Assembly: GCA_051002895.1 (NCBI GenBank)
Contig: JBPCLW010000029.1
Location: 1,234-65,233 of the forward strand
DNA length: 64,000 bases
DNA from: Candidatus Dormibacteria bacterium
GTDB lineage: Bacteria; Chloroflexota; Dormibacteria; Aeolococcales; Aeolococcaceae
Reading direction: 5' to 3'
Position numbers and translations under genes: made by a program
In this document: in pieces, positions 1-58,630 of the stretch
Layout: every line of letters begins with the position of its first letter
Position numbering within the stretch: position 1 is the first letter of the stretch
The notes under the pieces: generated by a model
Databases searched by the model: none
What the model was told of the DNA's origin: nothing
Seen by the model: only the letters and a program-made list of their open reading frames with translations

Positions 1-1342
<1,342 letters not shown>

Positions 1343-1396
1343 TGCCGTACTGCCAGAACGATCCGATGGCGGCGCGGCTCGGGTACGCTGCGCGCC

Positions 1397-14573: not shown

Positions 14574-14748
14574 AACGCGGTCAGTGCCAGGCGCCCACGA
14601 AGTCGGCGGCATGTACGCCACAGTCGGCCGGCCTGCGGTACCCTGGCGCGGCTCGGAAACCCTTTCGTCCTCTCCACGTTCCACACAGGGAGCCGGTGCC
14701 GATGATCGCGCCGCGCGATCAGGCGGACGTCTGTTCGCCCCACCGTAC

Positions 14749-25841: not shown

Positions 25842-28800
25842 GCGGGGGCGCCTCGCCCTGGAGTCCGGTGCCATCTTCGAGGGCATCCTCTTTGGCGCGC
25901 CGCTTCTCGAATCGCGAAGCGGCGAGGTCGTCTTCAACACCTGCATGACGGGATATCAGGAGGTCTGCAGCGATCCCTCGTACGCCGGGCAGATGGTGGT
26001 GATGACCCATCCGCTGATGGGGAACTACGGCATTCGCGACGCTTTCGCAGAGTCACCGCGACTGCACGCGAGGGCGCTGGTCATCCGCGAGCTCTCGCCG
26101 TGTGTCGGCCACGGCCGCGCCGATCGCAGCCTCGATGAGGAACTGAGCCGCCATAACGTGCCGGGGATCAGCGGCGTCGACACTCGCGCTCTCACCCGGC
26201 ATCTCCGAGACCGGGGAACCCTGCGGGGAATCCTTTCCCCGGCAACGCGCTTGGGGGTGGCCGAACAGGTCGAGGCCGCCCGATCCGCGCCCTGGGTTCC
26301 CGATCTCGATCTGGTGGCCGAGACCTCCCAGACTGAGGCGTCCCTGGAGTGGACCGAGCGACTGCCCGAGGAACTCGAGGTTGGAGTTCGGGCGGCCGGC
26401 GGTCTCGACCGTTTTGCCGGCATTCGTGTCGTTGCGGTTGATCTCGGCATCAAGCGCAACCAGCTGCGCGCGCTCCGCAGTCGAGGAGCCGACATCACTG
26501 TGGTCCGCCACGACGCGTCTCTCGAGGATGTTTTGCGCCACCGGCCCCAGGGCGTCCTCCTCAGTAACGGTCCCGGAGACCCCGCCAACCTCATCTGCCA
26601 GGTTGAGCTCTGCCGGAAACTGCTGGAGAAACGGGTCCCGCTGCTCGGTATCTGTCTCGGCCATCAGGTGCTCGGTCGGTCCGCCGAGGCATCGACCTCG
26701 CGGCTGCCCTTTGGACATCACGGTGGCAACCATCCGGTGCGTGACGAGACCAGCGGCGCTGTCTATGTGACCTCGCAGAATCACGAGTTCCAGGTGATCG
26801 CCGATACACTTGGCCAGGGGTGGCGGGTGAGCGAGCGCAATCTCAACGACGGGAGTGTCGAGGGGTTGGCCCACGATGAGTTGCCCGCTTTCAGTGTGCA
26901 GTACCATCCCGAGGGCGCTCCCGGACCACAGGATCGTGCCGGCGTCTTCGACCGCTTCCTGGAGATGGCCGGGGAACACCGCCCCGGCGCCGTGCATCTG
27001 CGATCGCCAATCGGCGACGCCATGCCCCACCGCGGGCTGGTGGCGCCGCCCACGGCAGTGGGGGAGAAGCCGCACTGCGTACTCGTCATCGGCTCCGGGC
27101 CGGTGGTCATCGGCCAGGCTGCGGAATTCGATTACGCCGGTACCCAGGCCTGCCGAGCGCTCCGCGAGGAGGGCGTCCGAGTGGTCCTCGTCAACAGCAA
27201 CCCGGCCACGATCATGACCGACGACGATTCGGCCGATGCAGTCTACGTCGAGCCGCTCACGGTTGCGGTGGTGGAGCGCATCATCGAGATGGAGAAACCC
27301 GACGGTCTTCTCGCCACTCTCGGTGGCCAGACCGGGCTCAATCTTGCGGTGGCGCTCGACGACGCCGGAGCGTTGCGCCGTCATGGCGTTCGCGTTCTCG
27401 GGAGCTCACTGGAGGCGATTCGCACTGCCGAGGATCGCGAGAAGTTCAAGAAGCTGCTGCGCTCCATCGGTGAGCCCGTGCCCGATTCGCGGACCGTCAG
27501 TTCGCCGGCTGAGGCTCGCATCTTTCTCGCCGAGATTGGCCTGCCGCTCGTGGTCCGCCCCGCCTTCACTTTGGGAGGCACCGGCGGAGGTCTCTGCGAC
27601 ACCGAGGAGCAGTTCGTCGACACCGTGGCGGCGGGGTTGGCGGCGTCGCCGATCAGCCAGGTACTCGTCGAGCGTTCTCTGACGGGGTGGCGCGAACTCG
27701 AGTACGAGGTAATGCGTGACGCGTCTGGGACGTGCATCACCGTCTGCAACATGGAGAACCTCGACCCCATGGGCGTGCACACGGGGGATTCCATCGTGGT
27801 GGCGCCGGCCCAGACACTGACCGACCGCGAGCATCAGCAGTTGCGCAGCGCCGCTCTGCGCATCATCAGTGCCCTGGAGATCGCCGGTGGCTGCAATGTG
27901 CAGTTCGCCATGGCTCCAGACTCGCACGAGTACCACGTCATCGAGGTCAACCCGCGGGTATCACGAAGTTCAGCGCTGGCGAGCAAGGCAACGGGATACC
28001 CCATTGCCCGGGCCGCCGCGAAGATCGCCTGTGGCAAGCGTCTCGATGAGATCAGCAACGCGGTGACCGGCAAGACGTGCCTCGCCTTCGAGCCGGCGCT
28101 TGACTACTGCGTGGTGAAGATTCCCCGCTGGCCATTCGACAAGTTCCCCGACGCCGATCGTCGGCTGGGCACGCAGATGAAGTCGACCGGAGAGGTCATG
28201 GCCATCGAGCGGAGTTTCCCAGCAGCCCTCAGCAAGGCTCTCCGCTCCCTGGAACAGGCGCCGCCCACTGCGGCGGAGGTCCAGGACCCCGTGCTCGTCC
28301 AGAACCCCAATGACCGCCGCATCTTTGCGGTCATGGAAGGGTTGCGCTCGGGCCGGACGCCCGAGGACGTCAGCCGCGCCAGTGGGATCGGTGTCTGGTT
28401 CACTGAGCACATCGCCCGCCTTGTCGCCATTGAGGAGCGGCTCCGCCGGCATGGTGTCGATGACGCGACGCTGCGGACTGCAAAGCGTGCCGGTCTCGCT
28501 GATCGCCGCATTGCTCGGCTCGCCGACACGCCGGCCGCTGCGATTACCGAGCAACGTCAGCGCATCGGTCTGTCGCCCACCTTCAAGTGTGTCGATACGT
28601 GTGCCGCAGAATTCGTCGCCGCCACTCCGTACTATTACTCCACCTTCGAGACCGAGGACGAGCGTGTCGGCGCTGGGGATGACACTGTCGTTGTCCTCGG
28701 CAGCGGACCCATTCGCATCGGCCAGGGGATCGAGTTCGATTACTGCTCAGTGCAGGCGGCCCAGTCGCTGCGCCAGCAGGGCGTGGCTGCGGTCATGGTG

Positions 28801-30375
28801 AACAGCAATCCTGAGACCGTCTCCACTGACTTCGACTGCAGCACCCGCCTCTACTTCGAACCGCTTGACGCTGAGTCCGTTCTCGCCGTTATCGAGGCCG
28901 AGAGAGCGACCGGTGCTGTCGTCCAATTCGGCGGCCAGACCGCCATCAACCTGGCCCGACCCCTTGCCGATGCCGGTGTGAACATTCTCGGCAGCAGCGT
29001 TGCAACCATCGAGGCGGCGGAGGACCGCCGGCTGTTCGAGGCTCAGATGCGTGCTCTCCAGATCCCCCAGCCGCGGGGCGCGGCAACGCTCGACCTCGAC
29101 GAGGCCACCGAAATCGCTGATCGCATCGGATATCCGGTGCTGGTGCGGCCGTCGTTCGTGCTCGGCGGTCGCGCCATGGAAGTGGTGAACAGCCGCGGCC
29201 AACTGCGCCGTTTTCTCGAGCTGGCCATGGCGGCGCTGCCCGAGGACGGTGATGGTCGCCGCGGCAACGTGCTCATTGATCAGTACCTCCTGGGCACCGA
29301 GGTTGACGTCGATTGCATCAGCGATGCCGACACCGTTGTCATTCCTGGCCTCATGGAGCATGTCGAGCGCGCCGGAGTGCATAGCGGCGATTCCATGGCA
29401 GCATACCCGGCGCCTAACCTCAGTGGCGGACTGCGCGCCGAGATCGTTGATGCGACGGTGAGCATTGCTCGGGCCATGAAGATTCGCGGGCTTTGCAACA
29501 TCCAGTTCGTGGTCTGGCGCGGCCGTGCCCATGTCATCGAAGTGAATCCCCGCGCTTCTCGGACGGTGCCCTTCCTCAGCAAGGTGACGGGGGTGCCCAT
29601 GGTGGGTTTGGCGACGCAGGTCATGCGTGGCGCGATGCTCGCCGATCTCGGCTGGGAAACGGGACTGGTCCCCGACCGTCCCCTTGTCGCCGTCAAAGCC
29701 CCTGTGTTCTCCACGGGGAAGCTCACCCTGGTGGACAGCGTGCTGGGCCCCGAGATGAAGTCCACCGGCGAGGTGATGGGGATCGACACCGACCTTGGCG
29801 CTGCCATTGAGAAGGCGTTCCTCGCGGCTCTCGGGGTCATGCCGACGAGTGGCGCCGTGCTCTGTAGCGTTGCCGACCCTGACAAAGCGGACGCCCTGCC
29901 GGTCCTCGCTCAACTCGCCGAACTCGGCTTCGACATCTACGCCACGGCGGGAACCGCCCAGGCGCTGGGCGTGGCCGGCATCAGTGCGATCCCGGTTGGT
30001 CGCATCGGGCACGGCCGCCCCAACGTCATCGACATCATCGAGGAGGGCCGGGTCTCGATCGTCGTCAACACAGTGTCGCATTTCGAAACTGATGAGTTGC
30101 ACTTCGACGAGCATGGTGGCCTCATCGCTGCAGCCGGGCGCACGGTGAAGGATGGCTACCGTATTCGCCTCGCCGCCGAGCGCCGTCGCATTCCCTGCTG
30201 CACATCGATGGACACCGCGAGAGCGCTCGTCGATGCCATGGTGCGACAGCACCGACAGATGGCGCGTCAGCACGGAGCGGTTGAGGTGAGTGTCGCTCCG
30301 GTGAAGGCGTACCGGGAGGGCGCGGTTCCGGTCAGTCGAGCACACCCAGCCAGTCGCCGAGTAGAGCGCGGTTGA
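25834..30375 (+). CDS. carAB: Carbamoyl-phosphate synthase, small (glutamine amidotransferase) and large (synthetase) subunits encoded as one continuous reading frame (apparent CarA-CarB fusion)
   Basis: A single 1535-codon ORF. Residues 1-400 or so are CarA ([23 protein letters not shown]). Then, with no intervening stop, CarB follows (MPHRGL...[21 protein letters not shown], two ATP-grasp repeats, MGS-like C-terminus). Start placed at in-frame GTG 25834 overlapping the pyrC stop (GTGCCTGA). ATG 25768 is an alternative. Confidence 0.75.
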
Positions 30376-35743: not shown

Positions 35744-36871
35744 TCACGGGCGTAGATCGCCGATCAGTTCGCGGTAGACGGCCACCGTCTCCGTGGCCGC
35801 GCAGGCCCAGGTGAAGGGGGCCGCGCGCTCGATGCCGAGGGCCGCGCGGTCGCGGCAAACGTGGGGATCCGCGAGGAGAGCGCTGAGCAAGGAGGCGAGA
35901 GCGGCGGCATCGCCGTCCGGTGCGATCAGGGCCGCCTCACCGCCCACCTCGGGAATCGAGCTGTTGGCGAAGGCCGCCACCGGGGCACCGCAGGCCATGG
36001 CCTCGAGCACGGGTAGGCCGAAGCCCTCGTACGCACTCGTCACCACCACGGCGGCGGCCCCGCTCATGAGAGCGACGAGGTCGCTGCGGGAGACGTGTCC
36101 AAGGATGCGGACATGGCCCTGCAACTCCGGGCGATCGAGGGCATCCTCGAGTCGCCTCTGAAAGATGCCCTGGTCGCCGGTGATCACGATGTCGATGTCG
36201 TGTTCGGCGCGGACGCGTGCGACCACTTCACTCAGCAGCCCAGGCCGCTTATGGGGCTCGAACGTGCCTGCGGCCAGGAGGTAGGGGCGCTCCAGCCCGA
36301 GACGGAGGCGTGTCGCCTCGATCTCGGCCGCTCCCGCGGGGTGGAAGTGGGGCGCCACCCCATGGGCGACGACGCGGATGCGCTGGAGATCGCAGTGCGC
36401 CACCCGCACGCAGTCGTCCCGCGTCGATCGACTGGGGACGATGAGCCGATCGGCGCGGCGCAGCTGGTGAACCGCAAGGCGCAGACGCTCTCGACTCTTC
36501 CAGGGATATCCCGGCAGAACGAAGGGGATGAGGTCGTGGACCGTGACGACGACGGGAATACTCGCTGCGGCCGGCTGTCCATATTCGGTGGCGTGATACA
36601 GCCGGGGACGGTGACGCCGCAGGGCACCGGCGACCAGCAGGGAATCGGCGAGCGGCTGGATGCGCCGGTTCAGGCAGGGAAGCCGGGGGCCCACGCCGGC
36701 TCCGGAGGTGGCCAGATACGACGGCAGAGCGTCGCGGCTGAGGAGCAGGGAGAGTCGTGACGTCATCCCCAGGCTCGCCAGTCCGTCCAGCAAGCCGGCA
36801 ACGTAGGTCCCGATTCCTCGCGGCGCGGAGCCGCCCTGGAGTGGACGTCCGTCCATCAGCAGCGGCCTCAT
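35744..36871 (-). CDS. Glycosyltransferase family 4 (GT-B, retaining)
   Basis: From ATG 36871 (ATGA overlap with the upstream GT4 stop): MRPLLMDGRP... C-terminal GT4 signature EGFGLPVLEAMACGAPV. The upstream 77 codons of ORF 35744..37102 are an Arg-rich artefact. Confidence 0.8.
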   Translation of the reverse strand: MRPLLMDGRPLQGGSAPRGIGTYVAGLLDGLASLGMTSRLSLLLSRDALPSYLATSGAGVGPRLPCLNRRIQPLADSLLVAGALRRHRPRLYHATEYGQPAAASIPVVVTVHDLIPFVLPGYPWKSRERLRLAVHQLRRADRLIVPSRSTRDDCVRVAHCDLQRIRVVAHGVAPHFHPAGAAEIEATRLRLGLERPYLLAAGTFEPHKRPGLLSEVVARVRAEHDIDIVITGDQGIFQRRLEDALDRPELQGHVRILGHVSRSDLVALMSGAAAVVVTSAYEGFGLPVLEAMACGAPVAAFANSSIPEVGGEAALIAPDGDAAALASLLSALLADPHVCRDRAALGIERAAPFTWACAATETVAVYRELIGDLRP

Positions 36872-38043
36872 CGAGAGATTGCCGCCCGCAGCAGGCTCTC
36901 CAGTCGCTCGACAACGTCGTCCCAGCGGTAACGCTCGGCGACGAATCGACGGCCGCGCTCGCCCATGGCATCCGCAGCAGATGGCGACGTCAGGAGCTGC
37001 TCCGCAGCGTCGGCGAATTCTCCGCTCGTCTGGTAGACGATGGCAGCAGCGGAACGGGCGGCCTGTCCCCGGAGCACCGCTCCGGCGCCGTTGACGATGC
37101 ACGGCCGTCCCGTGGCCCAGGCCTCCAGGGTGATCAGGGAGAGCGACTCCATGCTGCTGGGTACGACGACCGCGCGCGCCCCGGCAACCGCTGCCCAGCG
37201 CTCGGCATCCGGCACCCGGCCGATCCGCAGGACTCCGGGTGGGACCGCTTGGCCGGTGGAGTCGTCACCCATGAGGACGAGGCGGGCCCGGGGTCGCCGT
37301 GTACGTAGTTCCGCGAAACCGGTGAGCAGGTCGGTCACTCCCTTGCCGCTGGTCACTCGACCGCCGTACAGCAGATAGTCGTCAAGCTGCCGCCGACGCC
37401 GGAATCCGTCGACATCGATGTCGTTCGGCGCATCGACACCAACGGTCCCGATAGCGTGAGGGACGCGGGCGGATTGCGGATGGCAGCGAAGCAGGAGTTC
37501 CCGTTCCTCTTCGGTGTTGAACCACAGGCCGTCGCTCGACGTGATCATGCGGCCGACGCGGCGCAACCGCAGTGCGGGCTCGTCGTGGGCCGCGGGAAGC
37601 AGCACTCGGGGATGGGGCGCCGCGGGAAGCCCAGACACGGTGGGGTGATAGAGATACGGAGTGAAGAGCGTCGGATGACCCGCTGTCTCGCTCAGCGCCC
37701 GCACCAGGCTCGGCGCATAGGGACCCTGGGCGCGGAGCCAGAACCTCTCGGGACGCAGCCTCGGGGGAAGACGGAAGACGGCTCGCGAGAGTTGATGGAA
37801 GGCGGCGGGATGGCGGCCGCTCCGGACCGGATAGCGATGCACCCGCACTCCCTCATCGACGCTGACGCCCGGCGCGAAACCCTCCGCCCAGGTGGCCTCG
37901 TCGATTGCTGTGGTGGTGAACACCTCGATACTCCAATGACGCTGGTGCAGTGCCAGGGCAAGGCGCCGGACCAGTGCCTCGCTGCCGCCACTGACGTTGG
38001 CCCCGTACCGGGGAACGACGATACGCAGACACCTCGTGCTCAC
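36868..38043 (-). CDS. Glycosyltransferase family 4
   Basis: 391 aa. GT-B fold with ESLSLITLEAWATGRPCIV (EX7E-like region). Translationally coupled at both ends. Confidence 0.8.
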   Translation of the reverse strand: MSTRCLRIVVPRYGANVSGGSEALVRRLALALHQRHWSIEVFTTTAIDEATWAEGFAPGVSVDEGVRVHRYPVRSGRHPAAFHQLSRAVFRLPPRLRPERFWLRAQGPYAPSLVRALSETAGHPTLFTPYLYHPTVSGLPAAPHPRVLLPAAHDEPALRLRRVGRMITSSDGLWFNTEEERELLLRCHPQSARVPHAIGTVGVDAPNDIDVDGFRRRRQLDDYLLYGGRVTSGKGVTDLLTGFAELRTRRPRARLVLMGDDSTGQAVPPGVLRIGRVPDAERWAAVAGARAVVVPSSMESLSLITLEAWATGRPCIVNGAGAVLRGQAARSAAAIVYQTSGEFADAAEQLLTSPSAADAMGERGRRFVAERYRWDDVVERLESLLRAAISR

Positions 38044-39098
38044 TCCGGCATGCCCAGGAGGCTCACCGCCTCGCCGAGCCTCTTGTCGACGCGATCATCA
38101 GAAAACTCAGCCAGGCGACGACGCCCGCGACCGATGAGCTCACGACGCAGGTTCTGGTCACGGATGACACGATCGATGACCTCTGCCCACACCAGGGGAT
38201 CGCGGTGACCGAGGACGATCCCCGCGCCCCCAACGGTCTCGGCAACGGCCCCGGCGTCCTGAGCGACCACGGGGACCGAGAAGGCCATGGCTTCGACCAG
38301 GGGCATGCCGAAGCCTTCGTGCTCACTCATGCAGACGACCACGCTTGCCGTTGCGTAGAGATCTCCGATCTCCCGGTCGCAGAGACGCCGGGCAGGCATC
38401 TCCACCACCCCGGCGACACCGAGGCGTGTCGCTAGCTCGCGCAGGGCAGCAACGTACGGGATGGTGTCGTCGCTCCCTCCGGGGATGACGAGGCGTGCCT
38501 GCGGTTGGGGTCCGGCGCGTAGGGCGGCGAGGACGCGGAGGAGGTCGTCGTGTCGCTTGTTGGGCGCCAGCCTGGAAACGAAGAGGAGCCGGGGCGGCGT
38601 CGCCGGGACCGCCGGACGCGGCCGCAGGCGTTGCAGGTCAACGGGAGGCGGCACGACCATGGTCTTCCGGCAGCCGGCGCTTCGCAGTTCATTCTCGTTG
38701 AACTGCGAAGCGGCAAGCCCGAGCTCGGCAAGCGGTGCCAGACGGGCAAGGTCGTCGCGGCCACGCTCCACCCAGTAGGCCACCCGGGGATTGACGTCCT
38801 CATAGAACCGACGCGGCGTGATGTTGTGGTACAGGAGAGCGTGGCGCGGGAGTAGCGCCACGAGGTCGGCGCAGCGCGCACCGATGGACAGGTGGTAGAG
38901 GACGACATCGCCGTCGTCCATGTCCCCGAGCAGTAGGTTCGCGGGCTGGGCCAGGTGCTGCAGACTCTCATCCACCAGTTCAGCGTAGATACCGCCTCCA
39001 ACCCGCAGGCGATGCAGCCCTTCCTGGATGCGGAGCACGCTCTGCCCCACTGCGTCACCGGGTGAGAGCACGGGTAGGAGTTGATGGATCCGACTCAT
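38040..39098 (-). CDS. Glycosyltransferase family 4
   Basis: From ATG 39098 (ATGA overlap): MSRIHQLLPVLSPGDAVGQ... with EGFGMPLVEAMAFSVPVV. The first 19 codons of ORF 38040..39155 overlap the upstream gene. Confidence 0.8.
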   Translation of the reverse strand: MSRIHQLLPVLSPGDAVGQSVLRIQEGLHRLRVGGGIYAELVDESLQHLAQPANLLLGDMDDGDVVLYHLSIGARCADLVALLPRHALLYHNITPRRFYEDVNPRVAYWVERGRDDLARLAPLAELGLAASQFNENELRSAGCRKTMVVPPPVDLQRLRPRPAVPATPPRLLFVSRLAPNKRHDDLLRVLAALRAGPQPQARLVIPGGSDDTIPYVAALRELATRLGVAGVVEMPARRLCDREIGDLYATASVVVCMSEHEGFGMPLVEAMAFSVPVVAQDAGAVAETVGGAGIVLGHRDPLVWAEVIDRVIRDQNLRRELIGRGRRRLAEFSDDRVDKRLGEAVSLLGMPE

Positions 39099-40279
39099 GC
39101 CGTGGCGGGCAAATCCCGCAGTGCCTCCTCGAGCCGTTTGATGACTGCGCTCCACGAGTAACGCTCGGCGACGAAGCGGCGACCCGCCTGGCCCATGCGA
39201 TCACGCAGGTCACGATCCGCTCGCAAGCGATCGAGTGCGCCGGCGAATTCCTCGACTGAGCGGATCCAGAGCCCTCCCCCGGACTCCTCGCAGGCGCGTC
39301 GGGTAACCGCGCAATCAGCGTGGACAATGACCGGAACCCCGACGCTCCAGGCCTCCATGATCACAAAGCTGAGGCTCTCGAATCGCGATAGGTTGGCGAC
39401 GACCAGCGAGGAGGCAAGCGCAGCGAGCTTCTCCTCCTGGGATAGGAAGCCGAGGTCGACGACGTGCTCGCGGGCGCGACGTGGCAGATCGATGTTGCCG
39501 CCGCCCAGCGCAAGCAGGGTGACCCGACCATCGGCGGAGAGAGCCAGGTTGTAGGCGGTGACGGATTCGGCGACCAGCGGAAAGTTCTTGGCCATCTCGC
39601 GGCGTCCTGCATAGGCGACGAGTTCACCCTGCAGCCGATGGCGGCGACGGAAGGCAGCAACATTGGGGGGAGGTGGGATGTCAAACCCTGCACCGACCAC
39701 TCGATTGGGCGGCAGCGGTCCCCAGAGGCGAGCGGCGAGGTCGCGTTCAGCAGCGGTGTTGAAGACCAGGCCAGCGACACTCGAGAGGACCTCCCCGACG
39801 CAGGCGAAACGGGCGGTGGGCTCATCGTGCAGGAGCGGCATGACCAGACTGCGCCCGGGATGGAGCAGCGCACCAAATACTGTTGGGCCGTACAGATACT
39901 GGGTGAAGAGGAATACATCGACGGAGTCGGCGATCTCATCGATGCGCGCCAGAAGTGCTTGGCTGTATCCGCCATTTCTGACCCATTCGCGCTGGAGATG
40001 ATCGGGCAGCGTCAGCCCCGCATCAATGGCTGGTTGAAGTCGGCGCATAATTGCGTGATCGCGCGGAGAGACAAGGAAGCGTTCCACCCTGACGCCACGC
40101 TCCACCGTGACGCCGGGCGGATACGCGTTCTCCCAGCTGAAGTGGTCACGAACACATGTGGTCAGAACCGACACTTGATGGCCGGCCTCGGCCAGACGTT
40201 GAGCGAACTCCCGAACGTGGGACTCGGCACCGCCGACGATTTCCCCGCCGTAGCGGGCGATAACCAGGACAGCGCGCAT
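39095..40279 (-). CDS. Glycosyltransferase family 4
   Basis: 394 aa. N-terminus MRAVLVIARYGGEIVGGAESHV (typical GT4 donor-binding start). C-terminus FESLSFVIMEAWSVGVPVIV. Confidence 0.8.
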   Translation of the reverse strand: MRAVLVIARYGGEIVGGAESHVREFAQRLAEAGHQVSVLTTCVRDHFSWENAYPPGVTVERGVRVERFLVSPRDHAIMRRLQPAIDAGLTLPDHLQREWVRNGGYSQALLARIDEIADSVDVFLFTQYLYGPTVFGALLHPGRSLVMPLLHDEPTARFACVGEVLSSVAGLVFNTAAERDLAARLWGPLPPNRVVGAGFDIPPPPNVAAFRRRHRLQGELVAYAGRREMAKNFPLVAESVTAYNLALSADGRVTLLALGGGNIDLPRRAREHVVDLGFLSQEEKLAALASSLVVANLSRFESLSFVIMEAWSVGVPVIVHADCAVTRRACEESGGGLWIRSVEEFAGALDRLRADRDLRDRMGQAGRRFVAERYSWSAVIKRLEEALRDLPATA

Positions 40280-41190
40280 CAGTTCGCGGCGACGCCCCGG
40301 ATCTGGTACCAGGGGCCGATCTCGCCACTACCGGAACCACCTCCGATCGGCGCGATAGTCACGTCGGTTAGACCGGCAGCCTCCCAGATCAGCTGGGCGG
40401 TCTCCCGACCCACGTGGCGGACCATATCGACGTCGAGGTCGGCAGGGTTGGACGGTGTGGCCGGATAGCCTGGGTCCGGGGCATCGGCGATGAGCAGGCC
40501 GCCGTCTTGCAGTGCGGATGTGGCCAGGGTGCCGATGCGCAGGAGTTCCGCAGCGCTGAATCGGGGGAGAAGCCCGAGAAGTGCGACGGCGGCTAGGGAG
40601 TCTCCGGCGGTATGTTCCAGGTCAGGAATGACACGCGCGGTTGCCGTCGCTACCGGGCGCTGGCGGGTGATGGCTGCCGCCACCGCCGGCGAGCCGGCCA
40701 CGAGCACCCGTCCGCTGGGCGCATCCCGGAGGGCGCGGAGAGCAGCCGTGGTCCGGCCCTCGCCGAGGCCGGTCACGCGGGCGTCAGCGCCTGCGTCGAT
40801 GGGAGGCACTCCGAGTCCGCGCGTTTCTGGCGTTTCTACGCGTGCCAGACGGCGTTCGATCCCACGCAACTCGCGGACCATGGCGGTGTTGAATCGGGTC
40901 TGATCAACAGCGACCGGCTGTACGTACCAGGCGATGAGCCGGCGCACGACGCGTTTGGTGAAGACGATTGCCGGACCCAGAGCGTGATTGGAGTGGAGGG
41001 GTCGCCAGAAGTCGACGACGGCGAGCACCTCGGGGGGATCATCATCCGGACGGACTCGGAACTCCTCGTGGAGCTGTGCCAGGAGCGCGGCCGGATACTC
41101 CCCGGCATCCTGGCGCCGTCGCACGTCCGCCTCGATCTCAGCGACAAGCGCCGCCGTGTCGACGCCGCTGGGCTCCTCGGTGCTGGACAT
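40279..41190 (-). CDS. Hypothetical protein (303 aa); first gene downstream of the WXG100-fusion gene, translationally coupled to the GT4 genes
   Basis: ORF with good length and its stop overlapping the next start. No confidently recognisable motif: there is no GxGxG SAM motif, so a methyltransferase assignment is not supported. Confidence 0.45.
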   Translation of the reverse strand: MSSTEEPSGVDTAALVAEIEADVRRRQDAGEYPAALLAQLHEEFRVRPDDDPPEVLAVVDFWRPLHSNHALGPAIVFTKRVVRRLIAWYVQPVAVDQTRFNTAMVRELRGIERRLARVETPETRGLGVPPIDAGADARVTGLGEGRTTAALRALRDAPSGRVLVAGSPAVAAAITRQRPVATATARVIPDLEHTAGDSLAAVALLGLLPRFSAAELLRIGTLATSALQDGGLLIADAPDPGYPATPSNPADLDVDMVRHVGRETAQLIWEAAGLTDVTIAPIGGGSGSGEIGPWYQIRGVAAN

Positions 41191-41238
41191 GCGGCGAGAC
41201 TAGCTCAGTCTCTCGCCCGGTCGCCCTCGCCGGTGGGG

Positions 41239-42198
41239 CTACCCGTGTTTCCCGATGTGGCTCTGAGCGACCCAGCCCCAGGTGTGGGTGGTCTTGTCGA
41301 GTCCGAGGACCCAGCCGTGTCGAGGTGCGGTGTGGGCAGCCTCGAAAACATCGCCGGGATTGACTGTGCCGATGGCGAAGGCCTTGGGATAGTCGCGCAA
41401 AGTTCCCGCGGAGGTGATGTGCACCCGGTGGAGCGCTTCAGCTTTCGCATGGGCCGCTTGCATCGGTACGAACTTGACATTTCCATCGCCACCCACAGCG
41501 TGCTGCGTTTGCGTCACCACGTTCCCGTTGGAATCGTGCACGACGCCGCCGTCGGCAAGGGCGTGGGTGGGGACGAATCCCCAGTGCAAACGCTGATGGC
41601 TGTTCGGGTTGTCGAGCACCATTGCCCAATCACCCTGACCCCGAACGTGAACGACGTACCGGACGCTGACGTGGTGAAGGCCCGATTTTCCGGGTTGAAC
41701 TTCCCCGAGCCATTTGCGCAGGTAGTGGGCACGCCCATGGCCAGGGAGGTTCTGAAGGACCACGGTGCCGGGAGCCAGAGTGGTGGTGGTGAAGTAGTGA
41801 TGTGACTTCTTGCCATTGGTCGCTGCAGGCGCGGGCCTGTGGCCAGCTCGTCCCTGAGCAGCGCTCCCCGTTCCTGTCATTCTGGCCGCGCCGGTCAGGT
41901 GGTCGAGCCTCACTGCCGCGTGCCTGTACGCCTGCTCACGAAGTACCGGGTCCTGGCCTGCGACCTGCAAATCGTCGGCCAGCATGTGGAGTATGGAGGA
42001 TGCTTGCAGCAGCCCCGCAGAGTGCGCTGAGACATCGGCGTGGAGCTTGTGGAGGTGAGCCAGGAACTGCTGGGTGGCCTGACCGTCCCAGGAGCCGACC
42101 TGGTTACGCAGAGCCTTCAGACTCGTGGCCTTGGTTCGAAGTTCAGCTTCGATAGCGGCGATCCGCGTCGCGCCTTGGTGAATGTGGGGGGCGCTCAT
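41239..42198 (-). CDS. WXG100-like N-terminal domain protein fused to an uncharacterised C-terminal domain of about 200 aa (candidate secreted effector)
   Basis: N-terminal 95 aa is a helix-turn-helix hairpin with a central W-x-G (…LRNQVGSWDGQATQQFLAHLHKLHADVSAHSAGLLQASSILHML…), as in ESAT-6/EsxA-like proteins. Then a Gly/Ala/Pro linker. The C-terminal domain is rich in His, Gly, Val and Thr, contains no Cys, and has no motif I can assign. Confidence 0.55.
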   Translation of the reverse strand: MSAPHIHQGATRIAAIEAELRTKATSLKALRNQVGSWDGQATQQFLAHLHKLHADVSAHSAGLLQASSILHMLADDLQVAGQDPVLREQAYRHAAVRLDHLTGAARMTGTGSAAQGRAGHRPAPAATNGKKSHHYFTTTTLAPGTVVLQNLPGHGRAHYLRKWLGEVQPGKSGLHHVSVRYVVHVRGQGDWAMVLDNPNSHQRLHWGFVPTHALADGGVVHDSNGNVVTQTQHAVGGDGNVKFVPMQAAHAKAEALHRVHITSAGTLRDYPKAFAIGTVNPGDVFEAAHTAPRHGWVLGLDKTTHTWGWVAQSHIGKHG

Positions 42199-42494
42199 GA
42201 CGCTTCGCCCTGAACGGTGCTTGTGGCGTCGCCCTCGGCCTGCTGATAGCTCGTCGCCGCTTCGGCCAGAGACTCGCTCAGTTGCTGGGTCCGCGAGACC
42301 AGCTCGGCAAGGTTATCGCGGTATCGCTGGCGAAAGTTGTCCAAGGCTTCGGCCGCCTTGGGATCGGTCAGCACAGCTATCGTTTGGGCGATCTCGGCGT
42401 CCAGACTCCCCACGAGACTCAGAATGTCAGAGGCGGACGTCGCAGCTGCCGTCGCCGTCTCGGCCAGGTGTTGAGGCTGCACCTGGATTGTCAT
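42195..42494 (-). CDS. Small helical protein (99 aa), possible WXG100-superfamily partner (EsxB/CFP-10-like, lacks W-x-G)
   Basis: Predicted two-helix composition (…SLDAEIAQTIAVLTD…LDNFRQRYRDNLAELVSRTQQLSESLAEAATSYQQAEGD…). ATGA overlap with the downstream WXG-fusion gene. Confidence 0.45.
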   Translation of the reverse strand: MTIQVQPQHLAETATAAATSASDILSLVGSLDAEIAQTIAVLTDPKAAEALDNFRQRYRDNLAELVSRTQQLSESLAEAATSYQQAEGDATSTVQGEAS

Positions 42495-42561
42495 GGTCGC
42501 CCAATAATACGGGCGGCCACCCAGCCTCTATCCTCCGAGTCCAGCTTGTGACAGTCGGCGC

Positions 42562-43830
42562 TTACGGAGCCGGCGTTGCGCGCTCGCGTTGAGGTTGGGC
42601 TGCGTGCTTGTCCACCGACCAAATGCCACTGAGATCGAGAAGGCCGTCTCGAGAGAGTTCATCGATAACCGTGACGTTGATGACACGCTCGAGGTGGTCG
42701 TAGGCATTTGAGCCGCGGCGCTCCGACAGATCGACACTAATCGTGTAGGCGGCGGCGAGGAGAGGCAGGCTCTCGATGGCATAGCGAATGGTGCCACGAG
42801 CGCCGCGCTGCCCCAGTCCCGGCGCAGCGTACTGACTCAGCGCCGTGGACGGCTGAGCCAGGGTCATGCCGTCGCTCCGTGAGAGTTGCAGGGTGCAGGT
42901 GAAGTCGGTGACGGCCTCGTGGTTGATGATGTAGTCGACCTCGATGGCGATGGCGTCGCCGCTCTTCACCACTGTGTGTTCCTTGCCGGCCGCGTCGAGG
43001 AGACGAACGGTGGTCACGGAAACCTCGGCAGAGCCCCAGCGTTCGACGTCCGCCAGAGCCTCCCCGGTGATGTCCAGGGTGGCAGCACCCACGCGGCGCT
43101 GGTAGAGAGCAGTGACCTCGCCGGCGGGCCCGTCGGCGATGAGAGAACCATGATCGAGGAGCAGAGCGCGGTCGCAGTAGAGATTCACCGACCCAAGTTC
43201 ATGGGTAACGAGGATGACGGTACGCCCTTCGCGCTTGTAGGCGGCAAAGGTGTCAAAACACTCCTGTTGAAATGCGGCGTCGCCGACGGCGAGCACCTCG
43301 TCCATGAGGAGGATGGGCGCGTCGGCCTGGATGGCTACGGCAAAGGCAACACGCACCTGCTGCCCCGATGAGAGGTTCTTCAACCGCTGCTCGGGCGCGA
43401 TCGGTTCGATCCCTTTCGAGGCAAAGTCCATGATGGCCTTCATGCGTCGCTGGATCTCCCGCCGGCTGATGCCGAGGATGGCCCCGTTGAGACCGATGTT
43501 CTCGCGCACGGTTAGGTCGGGGTTGAACCCGACCCCAAGTTCCAGGAAAGGAGAGATGTCGCCGTTGATCTGTACCCGGCCACCGCGGTCGGGCTCATAG
43601 ATACGCGATAGGACCTTCAGCAGCGTGCTTTTCCCCGATCCGTTGTGACCGATAATTCCGAGGAACTGGCCGGCAGGAACGTTGAACGAGACGTCGCGCA
43701 GCGCTTCTAGGGCGCGGTACCGGGACGTGCTTCGCGGGTGTGTCAGCCGGTACTTCAGCGAACTGCTCCGGTCGAGGGGGATGCGGAACCGCTTGCTGAG
43801 ATTGGTGACCTCGATGGCGTTTCCGGTCAT
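42562..43830 (-). CDS. wzt: ABC transporter ATP-binding protein, Wzt/TagH-type (polysaccharide export) with C-terminal substrate-binding-like domain
   Basis: From ATG 43830 (overlaps the wzm stop): MTGNAIEVTNLSKRF..., Walker A GHNGSGKST, signature LSSGQQVRV, Walker B LLMDEVLA, plus a 170-aa C-terminal extension as in Wzt. Confidence 0.85.
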   Translation of the reverse strand: MTGNAIEVTNLSKRFRIPLDRSSSLKYRLTHPRSTSRYRALEALRDVSFNVPAGQFLGIIGHNGSGKSTLLKVLSRIYEPDRGGRVQINGDISPFLELGVGFNPDLTVRENIGLNGAILGISRREIQRRMKAIMDFASKGIEPIAPEQRLKNLSSGQQVRVAFAVAIQADAPILLMDEVLAVGDAAFQQECFDTFAAYKREGRTVILVTHELGSVNLYCDRALLLDHGSLIADGPAGEVTALYQRRVGAATLDITGEALADVERWGSAEVSVTTVRLLDAAGKEHTVVKSGDAIAIEVDYIINHEAVTDFTCTLQLSRSDGMTLAQPSTALSQYAAPGLGQRGARGTIRYAIESLPLLAAAYTISVDLSERRGSNAYDHLERVINVTVIDELSRDGLLDLSGIWSVDKHAAQPQRERATPAP

Positions 43831-46748: not shown

Positions 46749-47429
46749 TCAGGGCGAGTGGAACCTCCCCGGGCGTGCTCCGCCACTCAACACCAGGGTG
46801 CGGGTGATCCGGGCGCTGAAGCCCGGCCAGGACGCAACAATGGAGTACTGACCCGCAGTGCCGGCGAACGAGACGGTGTCGGTGATCGTCTGGTTATGAG
46901 TCCACACCTGGGCAGAGGTCGCGCCCGTTCGGGTCGCGGGATGGGGTCCGGAGACCGTGAGCGTGGCCATGGCTGGAGCGCCCGGGCAGGCGGCCCCAGT
47001 GTTGGTGATGGTGGCAGTGATGAACACGGTGTCGCCGGGGCTCTGGCGGTCGCTGGAAACCTCCAGTGTCTGGATGGTTGACGTCAGGCCAGGGCAGGCT
47101 TTCGCCAAGGCGGCCGGGTGAGCGCTGCTGCTGCTCCTGCTCGGGGCGGGTGTTGACGATCCCGGGGCGGGGACGGGGAGCGCGCTCACCGGGGCGGGGG
47201 GCTGAAATATCGGTGGCTGGCCACCTGAGGGCGAAGGCGAGGGCGTGGCGGCGGCGCTGATGCCGAGGACGCCGCCCACGGGCTGGGCGGTTTGCTGGTG
47301 GCCGCTTGCCAGGGCAAGCGTGACGGCACCCGCACCGAGGATGAGAGTGGCTGCCGCGATGGCCGCGGTGGTCCGATTCGTCCGCGCGTGTCCGCGGCCC
47401 CAACTGATGATGCGAGTAGCTGTTTTCAT
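46749..47429 (-). CDS. Hypothetical secreted or membrane-anchored Ser/Pro-rich protein
   Basis: From ATG 47429: MKTATRIISWGRGHARTNRTTAAIAAATLILGAGAVTLA (signal/anchor), an S/P-rich linker, then a 120-aa Cys-containing domain. No identifiable family. Confidence 0.4.
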   Translation of the reverse strand: MKTATRIISWGRGHARTNRTTAAIAAATLILGAGAVTLALASGHQQTAQPVGGVLGISAAATPSPSPSGGQPPIFQPPAPVSALPVPAPGSSTPAPSRSSSSAHPAALAKACPGLTSTIQTLEVSSDRQSPGDTVFITATITNTGAACPGAPAMATLTVSGPHPATRTGATSAQVWTHNQTITDTVSFAGTAGQYSIVASWPGFSARITRTLVLSGGARPGRFHSP

Positions 47430-47542
47430 GCCGCCATGATCGCGCACGAGGGCGGACACTGAACGGACAAAGCGCCAAACGCATCACAGTGACCCGGCGG
47501 GTCACCGCGTCGAGGCACCCGGCGGAGTAGGCTTCGACCTCG

Positions 47543-48890: not shown

Positions 48891-50216
48891 TCACCGGACC
48901 GAGTCAGCGATCTCGGGGAGCACGATTGCCACGACCTCGTCGATCGAGCCGATCGGTTGCATTGCGGGAAGAGCCCGTAGCAAGCGGACGCCGAGGATGA
49001 CCGCGGGCCCAGTTGCGCCGGCGACGAGCCCGAGTTCGACGCGTAGGAAGAGATCGCTGCCCAGCGCGGTGACCACTCCGAAGCCCAGCGCACCAGCGAC
49101 CCAACCGAGCGCGACGCTGGAGTAGCGACCGAGCGAGACCAGTGCCTGGCCAAGGGCGGTGGCGAGCATGAACCCCGCGCACGAGAGCGACAGCAGGGCC
49201 AGGTCGCCGCCCCCCAATGTGCTGTCGGCACCGAAGAGAATGCGCACCGCCAGCGGTCCCAGCACGAAGGCGCCAGCGATGGTGACGATGCCCAGCGCGG
49301 CAGTGGCCACCAGCAGCCGGGAGAGGACCTGCCGGAAATCGCCGATGCTGCCGCTGGCCGCCAGCGCCGCCAGCTTGGGCAGCAAGGCTGCTTGTACGGC
49401 TTGAAAGAGGAAGAAGGGTATGTATGCGACGACCCGGGCATTGAGGAACTGCCCGGCGGCGGCGGTCTGATCGGAGCGTTCCAGGAGCGGGATCACCACC
49501 GGGCCGGCGGAGAGCAGGAAGTATGTCGCCACCGACGCCAGCAAGAGGAAGCCCAGTGCGTTACCGAGGACTCGCCATGATGCCACCGGTCCGGGGCGCA
49601 GCAGTCCATGCTCTCGGCTCAGAGCCAGCGGGATTGCTACGAAACTGGCCAGAACCAGAGCGAAGCCAAAGAGGCCGGCGACTCTGCTGCCGATGACCGC
49701 GCAAAGACCGCATCCGGCACAGCGGAGGATGCCCTCGCTGCCCAGGAGGAGTCCGTAACTCGAGAAGCGGCCGTTGCCGGAGAGAGTGCCCCGGGTGGTG
49801 TGGACACAGGTGTAGGCGACCAGTCCGGTGCCCAGGGCGGCCACGAAAAGGGCCTCGCCGTGAAAGAAGTGGTTGGCAAGGATGCCCGAGAGTGCCGCCA
49901 TGATCACCAGGAGGCCGGCGCAGAGGAGACCTCCCGCAGCGAGGGCACGGCGCACCACCGGGCCGCCCCCCTGGTCGCGTGTCCGCCGCTCCGCAAGTGC
50001 CCGGCCCACCTCTTGCTCGAGGGGGAGGAAGAAGCCCGGACCGAGAATGAAGAGCATCGACCAGAAGGTCGCCAGGGCCGCATAGGCGTCCCTGCCGAGA
50101 GCGCGATACCCGATGGCCAGAAACGCGTACTGAGCAAGCCCGGCCACGCCCAGTCCGATGGCGATGGCGGGTGTGCCCTCCGGTAAGGGATTGCGGGCGC
50201 GCAGTCCACTCAGCAT
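48891..50216 (-). CDS. Polysaccharide biosynthesis protein / oligosaccharide flippase (MOP superfamily, Wzx-like)
   Basis: From ATG 50216 (1-nt gap after the upstream kinase-like stop). About 12-14 TM helices with composition typical of Wzx/MATE-like flippases. The ORF-track start 50312 overlaps the upstream gene. Confidence 0.65.
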   Translation of the reverse strand: MLSGLRARNPLPEGTPAIAIGLGVAGLAQYAFLAIGYRALGRDAYAALATFWSMLFILGPGFFLPLEQEVGRALAERRTRDQGGGPVVRRALAAGGLLCAGLLVIMAALSGILANHFFHGEALFVAALGTGLVAYTCVHTTRGTLSGNGRFSSYGLLLGSEGILRCAGCGLCAVIGSRVAGLFGFALVLASFVAIPLALSREHGLLRPGPVASWRVLGNALGFLLLASVATYFLLSAGPVVIPLLERSDQTAAAGQFLNARVVAYIPFFLFQAVQAALLPKLAALAASGSIGDFRQVLSRLLVATAALGIVTIAGAFVLGPLAVRILFGADSTLGGGDLALLSLSCAGFMLATALGQALVSLGRYSSVALGWVAGALGFGVVTALGSDLFLRVELGLVAGATGPAVILGVRLLRALPAMQPIGSIDEVVAIVLPEIADSVR

Positions 50217-51574
50217 GCGTACGTGAACGACTGACTGAGTTTGCGTTCGGTCGGCTGAAGGAGGTGGAAGACCATGGTTCCGGAGACTTTCTGGCTGCCC
50301 TGGATCCGCCAACTCTGGGTGAGGTCGAACGATGCGATGTCCGAACCGATCTGCAGACTGGTGTCCGGTCCGTTGACCCCGTCACTGCGCTCCCAGCGGT
50401 ACACGAGCGTTCCCGTCCCCGAGATCCCGGCCTTGGCGGAGAAGGAGAACGTGGTGTCGCAGCCCCCGCTGCTGGGGCTGACGCTGAGCCTGGCGTCAGG
50501 TGCCACCACCAGTGGCCCGGTGTTGGCCGGGGCCCCTCGGAACGGATTGAGGGTGATCACGGCTGCGGCGGCGCCAGCGACGAGCGCTAGGAGGACCAGC
50601 ACCGCGACCAGACGTCCTCCCCGCCGTGGCCGGGCCGCGGTGGGCTTGGCTCGGGTGCGCCGCGGAATCGACAGCGGTCGGGCAGCGTCGGCGGATGCCA
50701 CCGTCGGGCTGACGCTGCGGCGCACGGCTCGCCCGCGTCTCGGTGCCGGGGCGGTGAGCGGCCGGCCCATGCGCGTGGCGAGGTCGGCGTCCGCTCGCCA
50801 GGTAGGACCCAGGGCGGTCTCGCCGGCCACCGCCAGGCTTCCGCGGAGTGAACTCGCCGAGGCAATCCGCCGCGAGGGTTCCTCATCGAGGGCGCGCGCG
50901 AGCACCTCGTCGATCGCACCCACCGCCTTGGGGGTGGCTTCGGCGGCGACATGCGAGAAGCCGGTGAGGAGCAGACGGGCCAGCGCTGCGGTGGCATAGA
51001 CGTCCGCTGCGGGCGTCGGCCCGTCGCTCAGTCCCTCGGGCGGCATGACCTGGGGCCAGCCTACCGTGCGGGGATCGGCGGCGAGCGCCCAAGCGAGCGC
51101 AAACTCGTCGAGCTTCACCTCGCCGCCACTGGTGATGACGACGTTCTCGGCGCAGACATCACCGTGGTCGATCTGCACCGCGTGCGCCCCCTCCAGGGCG
51201 GCGAGTACGGAGTCGATGATGACGAGCGCAGTCGCCGGCGGCAGCAGTTCCCCGGCTCGGAACGCTTCCAGACTTCGTCCCCGGACAAGCTCGGTGACGA
51301 GGTACATGCGGTCATCGCCGCGGACCAGGTCATATACCGCGACGCAGTTGGGGTGATCGAGCGCGGTCACGTGTTCCCCGGCCTCGGCGAGCAGGGCGAC
51401 GAAGTCAGGCCGGTTGACGAGCTCGCTGGGCATCTCCTCGAGGGCGACGGGATGACCGGTCTTACGGTACCGACCGGCGAAACGCGGTCCCACCAGGCCG
51501 TCGGCCATCACCGCCCCGATCACGTACTCCGCGAGGCCACTCTGAGGGCCGGTCCGCGGCGGTGGGCTCGTCAT
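50210..51574 (-). CDS. Ser/Thr protein kinase-like protein (probable pseudokinase) with TM segment and extracytoplasmic domain
   Basis: N-terminal kinase fold is recognisable (…YLVTELVRGRSL…, HGDVCAENVV in place of HRDLKPxN, DEF in place of DFG, no VAIK lysine). It is followed by an Arg/Pro-rich linker, one TM helix (LVAVLVLLALVAGAAAAVI) and a 120-aa extracellular domain. Confidence 0.55.
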   Translation of the reverse strand: MTSPPPRTGPQSGLAEYVIGAVMADGLVGPRFAGRYRKTGHPVALEEMPSELVNRPDFVALLAEAGEHVTALDHPNCVAVYDLVRGDDRMYLVTELVRGRSLEAFRAGELLPPATALVIIDSVLAALEGAHAVQIDHGDVCAENVVITSGGEVKLDEFALAWALAADPRTVGWPQVMPPEGLSDGPTPAADVYATAALARLLLTGFSHVAAEATPKAVGAIDEVLARALDEEPSRRIASASSLRGSLAVAGETALGPTWRADADLATRMGRPLTAPAPRRGRAVRRSVSPTVASADAARPLSIPRRTRAKPTAARPRRGGRLVAVLVLLALVAGAAAAVITLNPFRGAPANTGPLVVAPDARLSVSPSSGGCDTTFSFSAKAGISGTGTLVYRWERSDGVNGPDTSLQIGSDIASFDLTQSWRIQGSQKVSGTMVFHLLQPTERKLSQSFTYAC

Positions 51575-57648: not shown

Positions 57649-57688
57649 GCCGCGGTCGGAGGCGCTCCGGCGGCTATGCTCCGCCGCC

Positions 57689-58630
57689 ATGGGACGCATC
57701 GCGGTGACCGGCTCGGTCGCCTACGACACCATCATGGTCTTCCCCGGGCAGTTCAGCGACCACATCCTCGCTGACAAGGCGCACATGCTCAACCTCTCCT
57801 TTCTCGTCACATCCCTGGAGAAGCGGCGTGGCGGCACCGCGGCGAATATCGCCTACACGATGTCCCTGCTCGGCGAGCATCCGCTCCTGTGCGCCGCTGT
57901 TGGCAACGACTTCAGCGAGTACGGAGCCGATCTCGCACGCTCTGGCGTCGACACATCGGCAGCGCTGGGGTGCGATGACGTTGCCACCGCGAGTTGCTTC
58001 ATCACCACCGACCTCGCTAACAATCAGATCACTGCGTTCTTTCCCGGCGCCATGGCGCGAGCCGCTGCCATCGATCTCTGCCCCCTCGGCGATGTCGAGC
58101 ACGTCGTCGTCGCCCCCGACGACCCCACTGCGATGGCTGCGCACATCGGTCAGGCGACAGCGCTAGGAGCCAAGCTCGTCTTCGCCCCGGCCCAACAGAT
58201 TCCCTCACTTCCTGATGAGACGCTCATCGCCGGGCTCGACGCTGCCTGGCTGATCGTCGGCAATGACTACGAGTTGGAACTCATCCGCGATCGCACCGGC
58301 CGCGACCTCGACGCACTGGCGGCTCGGAGCCTGGTTGCGCTGACACGCGGCGGGTCGGGGAGCGAGATTCGTTGCGGCGCTGAGGGCGTCGAGATTCCCG
58401 CCGCCTCCGCGACCCTGGTCGTCGATCCCACCGGGGCCGGCGACGCCTACATTGCCGGTCTGCTCACCGGTCTGCGTCGCGGTCTTGACCCGGCTCAGGC
58501 CGGGCGCATGGGCGCCCTCGCCGCGACCTACGCCGTCGAGGCGCAGGGAACGCAGGCCCATCGCTTCGCTGCCGGCGAGTTCGAGGAGCGCTACGCGCAG
58601 GCCTTCGGAGCCGAGCTCGCCCACGTCTGA
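57689..58630 (+). CDS. PfkB-family carbohydrate/nucleoside kinase (ribokinase-like)
   Basis: From ATG 57689: [13 protein letters not shown]… (ribokinase-type N-terminus) and C-terminal signature DPTGAGDAY. Confidence 0.8.

Follow-up and report, generated by a model that had tools for sequence, protein, structure and literature searches.

A putative WXG100-type protein pair with a predicted SH3b-like cargo domain, encoded by an insertion in a glycan export operon of a soil Dormibacteria bacterium

The DNA analyzed here, a 64-kb stretch of Candidatus Dormibacteria contig JBPCLW010000029.1 (referred to below as the window), comes from a soil bacterium of the Dormibacteria group and carries a two-gene insert within a sugar-polymer (glycan) export operon. 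The insert encodes a small helical protein of 99 amino acids (aa) and a 319-aa protein in which a WXG100-like helical hairpin is joined by a flexible linker to a separate C-terminal domain, predicted to be a tandem SH3b-like beta module. The best reading of the pair, judged from its sequence features, is a WXG100-type heterodimer of which the small subunit alone passes formal family membership; this reading draws on the translational coupling of the genes, the division of the WXG and YxxxE motifs between the two partners, the length and placement of the hairpin, and the profile matches. The two proteins would form a two-subunit helical bundle of the WXG100 type (EsxB/EsxA-like or PE/PPE-like), to which the 99-aa subunit would bring a C-terminal YxxxE export signal and the 319-aa subunit the WXG hairpin with its linker-joined SH3b-like module. 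The prefolded heterodimer would leave the cell by way of a type VII-like system whose genes lie in another part of the genome, and the exported module may then bind an envelope polymer; candidates are peptidoglycan and wall glycopolymers, among them the polymer made and exported by the surrounding Wzm/Wzt-GT4 operon. Taken as a whole, this scheme of a heterodimer, a distally encoded export route, and SH3b-like binding of peptidoglycan or wall glycopolymer is held here with moderate confidence.

An initial annotation of this DNA, made without database searches, had described two translationally coupled genes of these lengths, placed 67 nucleotides (nt) downstream of wzt and followed by a 303-aa gene and four GT4 genes, and the coordinates and Pfam assignments agree with that description (Table 1). 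The two inserted genes overlap by 4 nt (ATGA), an arrangement typical of cotranslated partners and a point in favor of the heterodimer. The 67-nt spacer separates the stop codon of wzt (at 42562) from the start of the 99-aa open reading frame (ORF), and a second spacer of 48 nt separates the stop codon of the 319-aa ORF from the 303-aa ORF, which in turn overlaps the first of the four GT4 genes (35744-40279) by 1 nt. Pfam searches of the flanks confirmed Wzt (ABC_tran plus Wzt_C), Wzm (ABC2_membrane), and the four GT4 genes, and the pair is presumably cotranscribed with this operon. The 99-aa and 319-aa genes, with an identical 319-aa product, were found in three independent assemblies (JGI 3300009400, SRR33880236, and SRR33880237), and the pair is therefore not an assembly artifact. 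The pair is annotated by NCBI in a Candidatus Dormibacteria metagenome-assembled genome (MAG; locus tags ACR2GX_03840 and ACR2GX_03845), with the 319-aa protein labeled hypothetical.

The proposal that these genes form a WXG100-type bicistron was borne out most directly by the 99-aa protein, which lies above the Pfam gathering thresholds of two families. It matches WXG100 (PF06013, EsxAB clan) with 29.3 bits against a cutoff of 27.3, with residues 3 to 87 aligned to positions 2 to 85 of the 86-position model, and T7SS_ESX_EspC with 26.4 bits against a cutoff of 23.5 over nearly its full length. The match to TIGR03930 has an E value of 9.4e-7, yet its 28.9 bits lie below the cutoff of 44.85 for that model. 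HMMER comparison with PDB sequences gave weak full-length matches to PE25 (E = 0.24) and ESAT-6 (E = 0.47). The protein ends in a YxxxD/E-type export motif (Table 1), and the extended stretch YQQAEGDATSTV matches the pattern HxxxD/ExxhxxxH, a surface/export motif of type VII substrates (PMC3935865). BLASTP of the 99-aa protein against the N terminus of the 319-aa protein was not significant (E = 0.12), which indicates that they did not arise by recent duplication. Genome and metagenome contigs were also scanned for related loci with the 99-aa and the 303-aa protein, and none was found.

The 319-aa protein has the three-part structure that had been proposed for it, a WXG helical hairpin, then a flexible linker, and last a distinct C-terminal domain. 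Its N terminus scores 19.2 bits against Pfam WXG100 when the whole protein is searched and 22.3 bits (E = 1.6e-4) when residues 1 to 109 are searched alone, with a cutoff of 27.3, and also has a faint match to Pfam PPE (E = 0.04). The tripeptide W37-D38-G39 lies between helices predicted at residues 3 to 33 and 39 to 79 in a single-sequence AlphaFold2 model of low confidence (predicted local distance difference test [pLDDT], 53 to 69). The single-sequence model of the whole 319-aa protein was poor (pLDDT 43), and Foldseek retrieved only generic helical bundles with a single-sequence model (E of at least 0.18), and these results are therefore uninformative on the WXG100 fold of the N terminus. 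A phmmer search of the N-terminal 109 aa against PDB sequences found no match.

A word-indexed search with the 319-aa protein retrieved that protein alone, and the family of its C-terminal domain was reached only by an exhaustive HMMER search of 1.84 billion cluster representatives, which yielded seven distant relatives, all aligned to residues ~106 to 316. A profile search brought the family, with the query counted, to 59 proteins, nearly all of them 204 to 258 aa long and, where the host is named, nearly all from Actinomycetes (Nonomuraea, Actinomadura, Frankia, Streptomyces, Amycolatopsis, and Jatrophihabitans). The N-terminal half of the family contains the conserved pattern 'THYTH...VGVRYT...WGF'. 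The initial annotation had called the domain His-rich, Cys-free, and undescribed; its 190 aa include 20 His (10.5%, versus a homologue median of 5.9%) and no Cys, and the family has no Pfam model and no member with a precomputed Pfam domain, but UniRef names a few of its members 'SH3(b) domain-containing', so that the claim of an undescribed domain is partly right. AlphaFold2 with the family alignment gave a confident all-beta model (pLDDT 86.8; predicted template modeling score, 0.84), which structurally is most similar to the SH3b domains of wall hydrolases and, after these, to S-layer domains that bind teichoic acid; the matches include the NlpC/P60 proteins 6bim, 3h41, 3pvq, and 3m1u as well as LytB and AtlE R2ab. 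Foldseek agreed with an SH3b assignment, placing a model of Bacillus subtilis YrvJ-YacD first (E = 5.8e-4), with tandem-SH3b proteins and many single SH3 domains next, at a TM-score of ~0.7. The modeled domain thus has an SH3-type beta-barrel fold matching solved SH3b domains. At the level of sequence profiles, no Pfam SH3 model matched the C-terminal domain from the window, SH3_3 was reached by 3 of 58 family members (E of at least 0.025), phmmer gave a weak match to the Vav SH3 domain (E = 0.29), and the family profile found no match among PDB sequences. Since no catalytic fold occurs among the top structural matches of the model, the C-terminal domain is predicted to be a tandem SH3b-like binding module and neither a toxin nor an enzyme.

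Two of the actinobacterial homologues share a gene neighborhood. In Amycolatopsis (L025, 2493-5627) and Actinocorallia (L026, 2551-5642), the tandem SH3b-like gene is divergent from a conserved pair of genes encoding a helix-turn-helix-like protein (~180 aa) and a Ser/Thr kinase, and the Amycolatopsis kinase has a weak SH3_3 match of its own. Two more small genes directly upstream of the Amycolatopsis homologue encode SH3-like proteins of 100 and 107 aa that carry signal peptides, and one of these genes overlaps the SH3b-like gene. These small genes were considered as WXG100 partners and rejected, being single SH3-like proteins with signal peptides.

The prediction of a binding module bears on the suggestion, made in the initial annotation, that the 319-aa protein is a type VII effector of the polymorphic-toxin type, with a toxic or enzymatic C terminus and with the 303-aa gene downstream encoding its cognate immunity or partner protein. 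The combination of a helper, a helical targeting domain, a linker, and a variable C terminus does match WXG- and LXG-fused toxins. However, the cargo is modeled as a tandem SH3b-like module, its homologues are small stand-alone secreted proteins found with no toxin cassettes, and the 303-aa protein is methyltransferase-like and directly follows wzt in loci that lack the pair. The toxin interpretation is largely refuted by these observations, and we regard it as highly improbable.

The 303-aa protein has 17 homologues at 39 to 50% identity. Its family profile matches the methyltransferase of PDB entry 3dli over positions 139 to 285 (E = 3.7e-7), with marginal matches to many more class I methyltransferases. 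PF13489 matches 3 of the 18 family members; the protein from the window itself has no Pfam methyltransferase match. Where 3dli has the S-adenosylmethionine motif 'LDIGCGRG', the family has the degenerate-looking 'vlvlGag'. The N-terminal ~120 aa are strongly conserved and have no Pfam model, and the invariant residues of this region are D11, Y32-P33, R63, S67, R83-R84, W88-Y89, P92, D96-Q97, F100-N101, and R117. In the related loci L005 to L011, the gene always comes immediately after wzt or first in the GT4 block. The 303-aa gene is a conserved member of the operon with a methyltransferase-like profile, and its product could be a WbdD-like chain terminator or regulator. The retention of the homologue where the WXG pair is absent argues that it is not an immunity or partner gene.

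One of these loci, L005, which lacks wzm and wzt, encodes a secreted CAP-domain protein (603-1868, minus strand) upstream of its methyltransferase-like/GT4 block, with five 'LDGWGGIHxFG...PYWPGWDIAR' repeats. The genes upstream of the block in L005 (99 and 421 aa) were evaluated as a second WXG pair and discarded, one being the secreted CAP-domain repeat protein and the other an Arg-rich and presumably spurious frame.

Comparison of the 319-aa protein with its C-terminal relatives points to an exchange of export signals. All 56 of the 56 full-length homologues have a leader of 25 to 70 aa with a hydrophobic core (maximum Kyte-Doolittle value, 1.6 to 3.1), and the majority of these leaders begin with basic residues and end at an AxA-type site. 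At the corresponding place, the protein from the window carries 129 aa of WXG100-like domain and linker, with no hydrophobic leader (maximum Kyte-Doolittle value, 0.71 in the first 40 aa). Each full-length homologue also contains four nearly invariant cysteines, which probably form disulfides, and at these columns the window protein has T145, A213, P292, and a gap. By sequence, the signal peptide has been swapped for a WXG100 domain, and the parsimonious explanation would be that an extracytoplasmic domain moved from the Sec pathway to a route for proteins folded in the cytoplasm, the one taken by WXG100 heterodimers. Because the leader has been replaced by a WXG100 domain and the cysteines are gone, export of a prefolded heterodimer by a type VII-like system is the most likely fate of the pair.

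No other member of the C-terminal family has an N-terminal extension long enough for a WXG100 domain, and no other WXG100 fusion was found among about 15 billion proteins. This singleton status, together with the disappearance of all four family-conserved cysteines and a codon adaptation index slightly lower than that of the neighboring genes (0.54 to 0.56 for the pair versus 0.58 to 0.72), would suit a recently acquired, decaying, or nonfunctional fusion, an accident without a role. Against such an origin, both frames are intact and coupled, all eight family-invariant columns are kept (in an alignment that includes the window protein itself), threading of the window sequence with the family alignment yields a confident model, and the identical 319-aa product recurs in the three assemblies. 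The GC content of the insert (0.63) and the GC content at its third codon positions (0.73) are also both near the values of neighboring genes, which argues that the insert is not recent foreign DNA. An accidental fusion is consequently considered improbable.

The genes of the pair form a lineage-specific insertion between wzt and the methyltransferase-like gene. In L006, L007, L008, L009, L010, and L011, wzt is followed by the 303-aa homologue, with a 4-nt overlap or a gap of 20 to 70 nt, and then by GT4 genes. The JGI 3300067032 contig likewise has wzt followed by the 303-aa homologue with no WXG pair, and all of its called genes are syntenic with the window (kinase, M16 peptidase, AdoHcy hydrolase, APRT, wzm, wzt, methyltransferase-like, and GT4). 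With wzt directly before the 303-aa homologue in these seven related contigs, the question of whether the pair is a conserved structural part of Wzm/Wzt loci or a cargo insertion, which the initial annotation had posed, is decided for insertion. A tblastn search (E of ≤1e-5) for either inserted gene found no relative in L005, L006, and L008 to L014, a set to which L007 and the JGI 3300067032 contig did not belong. Three loci were retrieved with Wzt as the query (L012, L013, and L014; Wzt ~59% identical), and none has the WXG pair; L012 and L013 have another gene arrangement downstream of wzt, and the L014 contig stops ~270 nt past it. There are no convincing direct or inverted repeats flanking the insert and no compositional anomaly that would mark a mobile element.

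Several minor features overlap or border the insert. An ORF of 397 aa (40612-41805, plus strand) runs antisense to the 3' portion of the 319-aa gene, across the 48-nt spacer, and over most of the 303-aa gene; neither public gene call places anything on the plus strand over the portion that it covers, and the ORF is probably spurious, a product of the high GC content of the genome. Within the 48-nt spacer (41191-41238, minus strand) is an imperfect hairpin (GGCGAGAGACTGAGCTAGTCTCGCC), ending 2 nt upstream of the ATG of the 303-aa gene. This hairpin has no T-tract and is therefore not terminator-like; it could influence translation initiation of the downstream operon genes. A scan of the insert for promoters and terminators found nothing above chance, with a weak hairpin and T-rich tail in the 67-nt spacer (3 sites versus 3.1 expected).

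The position of the insert raises the alternative that the pair is a nonsecreted, cytoplasmic accessory of glycan assembly, in which the hairpins are merely a dimerizing helical bundle and the SH3-like module binds, for example, Wzt, the methyltransferase-like protein, or the terminus of a lipid-linked glycan. The pair lies on the same strand as wzt and the methyltransferase-like gene and is separated from them by short spacers, type VII genes were not found in the window, and the loss of the four conserved cysteines suits a reducing compartment. However, Sec-type leaders are present on all other full-length proteins of the cargo family and place the cargo domain outside the cytoplasm there, and the small partner retains the YxxxE export motif. 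The operon also occurs without the pair in the seven related contigs, which indicates that the pair is dispensable for glycan assembly. On balance, a cytoplasmic role is considered unlikely.

Export of a WXG100-type heterodimer, the preferred interpretation, has a number of observations weighing against it. The 99-aa protein lacks tryptophan and hence a WXG motif, its probable turn being at approximately T43-D-P-K46; some partners of the CFP-10, PE, and EspC types likewise lack WXG. The N terminus of the 319-aa protein aligns to positions 6 to 82 of the 86-position WXG100 model with a score that remains subthreshold, and it has no homologue in any database searched, so that no profile could be made. 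As the initial annotation had noted for ESX core genes, the ~55 sizeable ORFs of the window yielded no FtsK/SpoIIIE-type (EccC/EssC) ATPase and no match to another type VII core family, and no report of type VII secretion in Dormibacterota was found in the literature. The fusion of a WXG100 domain to an SH3b-like module, as a singleton, comes without comparative evidence for function; the loss of all four cysteines is equally compatible with a cytoplasmic protein, and the SH3b-like module has no assignable ligand. A point on the other side is the presence in the same window of a LytR-CpsA-Psr (LCP) family protein, a wall-glycopolymer ligase (14566-16215, plus strand), which suggests that the organism attaches glycopolymers covalently to its wall.

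N-terminal WXG domains on variable C-terminal cargo are a known design for type VII trafficking in Firmicutes, Actinobacteria, and Chloroflexi (PMC3482391), and the export of LXG effectors requires small helical partners (PMC10801868, PMC9600955). Like the WXG100 pairs ESAT-6/CFP-10 and EsxA/EsxB, the genes described here are adjacent and overlapping and encode helical proteins or domains of ~100 aa with WXG on one partner and YxxxD/E on the other; unlike in those pairs, the WXG partner carries an additional folded domain and is 319 aa long, WXG is missing from the small partner, no EccC/EssC ATPase is encoded next to the pair, and the phylum is Dormibacterota. The arrangement of a helical targeting domain, a linker, and variable cargo with a helper immediately upstream is shared with WXG- and LXG-fused toxins (Lap1/Lap2-LXG and EsaD with EsxB/C/D), whereas the cargo here is predicted to be noncatalytic and SH3b-like, there is neither an immunity gene nor a toxin cassette, and the N-terminal domain corresponds in length to a WXG100 hairpin (~95 aa) and not to an LXG domain (~200 aa). 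PE25/PPE41 offers a further parallel, with a YxxxE partner of ~100 aa encoded first and then a WXG partner with a variable C-terminal extension. In contrast to PE/PPE proteins, the scores are well short of the family cutoffs (Pfam PE [PF00934], 11 bits versus 22; PPE [PF00823], 14.4 versus 26), the N-terminal domain is shorter than the ~180-aa PPE domain, and there are no PE/PPE signature motifs. The cargo differs from the SH3b domains of endolysins and autolysins (Psm, NlpC/P60 enzymes, LytB, AtlE R2ab, and SlpA) in that no catalytic domain is attached, no Pfam SH3 model is reached, and the domain belongs to a distinct family of ~210 aa.

The pair is thus best described as a rare yet fairly ordinary variant of a known secretion-substrate design, with a cargo that appears to be nontoxic and in a phylum new for the design, and its broader impact is limited because it is a singleton fusion with a known architecture and a common cargo fold. 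Should the pair prove to be exported, it would point to secretion of the WXG100/type VII kind in Dormibacterota, a candidate phylum represented chiefly by MAGs. It would also be a natural example in which a Sec leader and disulfides have been exchanged, on the same cargo domain, for a WXG100 heterodimer without cysteines, a signal swap useful for understanding the range of type VII cargo. A more specific conjecture, which we consider rather doubtful, is that Dormibacterota possess a type VII-like route onto which a Sec-secreted, SH3b-like wall- or glycan-binding protein was rerouted, with its genes placed in the Wzm/Wzt operon for coproduction with the polymer that it recognizes. The type VII substrate would then be a structural or retention factor for a surface glycan instead of a toxin or virulence factor. 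The analysis also delineated two families without a Pfam model, the actinobacterial secreted tandem SH3b-like proteins and the methyltransferase-like protein encoded after wzt in these glycan loci.

Table 1. Features of the inserted gene pair and its immediate flanks, in window coordinates
Feature	Position	Strand	Remarks
99-aa ORF	42195..42494	-	WXG100/EspC-like small helical partner
Y83-Q-Q-A-E87, YxxxD/E type VII export motif	42234..42248	-	Aligned by HMMER to YATAE of PE25
319-aa ORF	41239..42198	-	Fusion of WXG100-like hairpin, Gly/Ala/Pro linker, and predicted tandem SH3b-like domain
WXG100-like helical hairpin, residues ~1-95	41914..42198	-	W37-D38-G39 at bases 42082-42090
Gly/Ala/Pro-rich linker, residues ~96-129	41812..41913	-	pLDDT 29-49; no homologues
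Predicted tandem SH3b-like beta domain, residues 130-319	41242..41811	-	Cys-free, His-rich
Lineage-specific insertion, 1371 nt	41191..42561	-	67-nt spacer, two genes, and 48-nt spacer
wzt (flanking, outside the insert)	42562..43830	-	ABC_tran and Wzt_C (Pfam); called 422 aa in L001
303-aa methyltransferase-like operon gene (outside the insert)	40279..41190	-	Family profile versus PDB 3dli

Near the glycan operon are two further genes without a Pfam family. One encodes a polytopic membrane protein of 473 aa (48891-50312, minus strand), which could be a flippase-like or polymerase-like component; at the corresponding place in JGI 3300067032, beside the kinase gene, is a family-less gene of 506 aa. 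The other encodes a Pro/Ser/Ala-rich protein of 236 aa (46749-47459, minus strand) that is probably secreted.

The wider surroundings in the window are of a housekeeping character and include carAB, pyrB, methylmalonyl-CoA mutase, PFK, the LCP ligase, a class I (Trp/Tyr-type) aminoacyl-tRNA synthetase, and GDH, among others. In bacteria, carA and carB are usually separate genes. Here, a single frame of 1539 aa (25756-30375, plus strand) contains the carbamoyl-phosphate synthase small chain, GATase, and the complete large chain and looks like a fused carA-carB gene. A large DUF6909 protein (55852-57720, minus strand), matched over its full length with 705 bits, is encoded next to a phosphoribosyltransferase gene.

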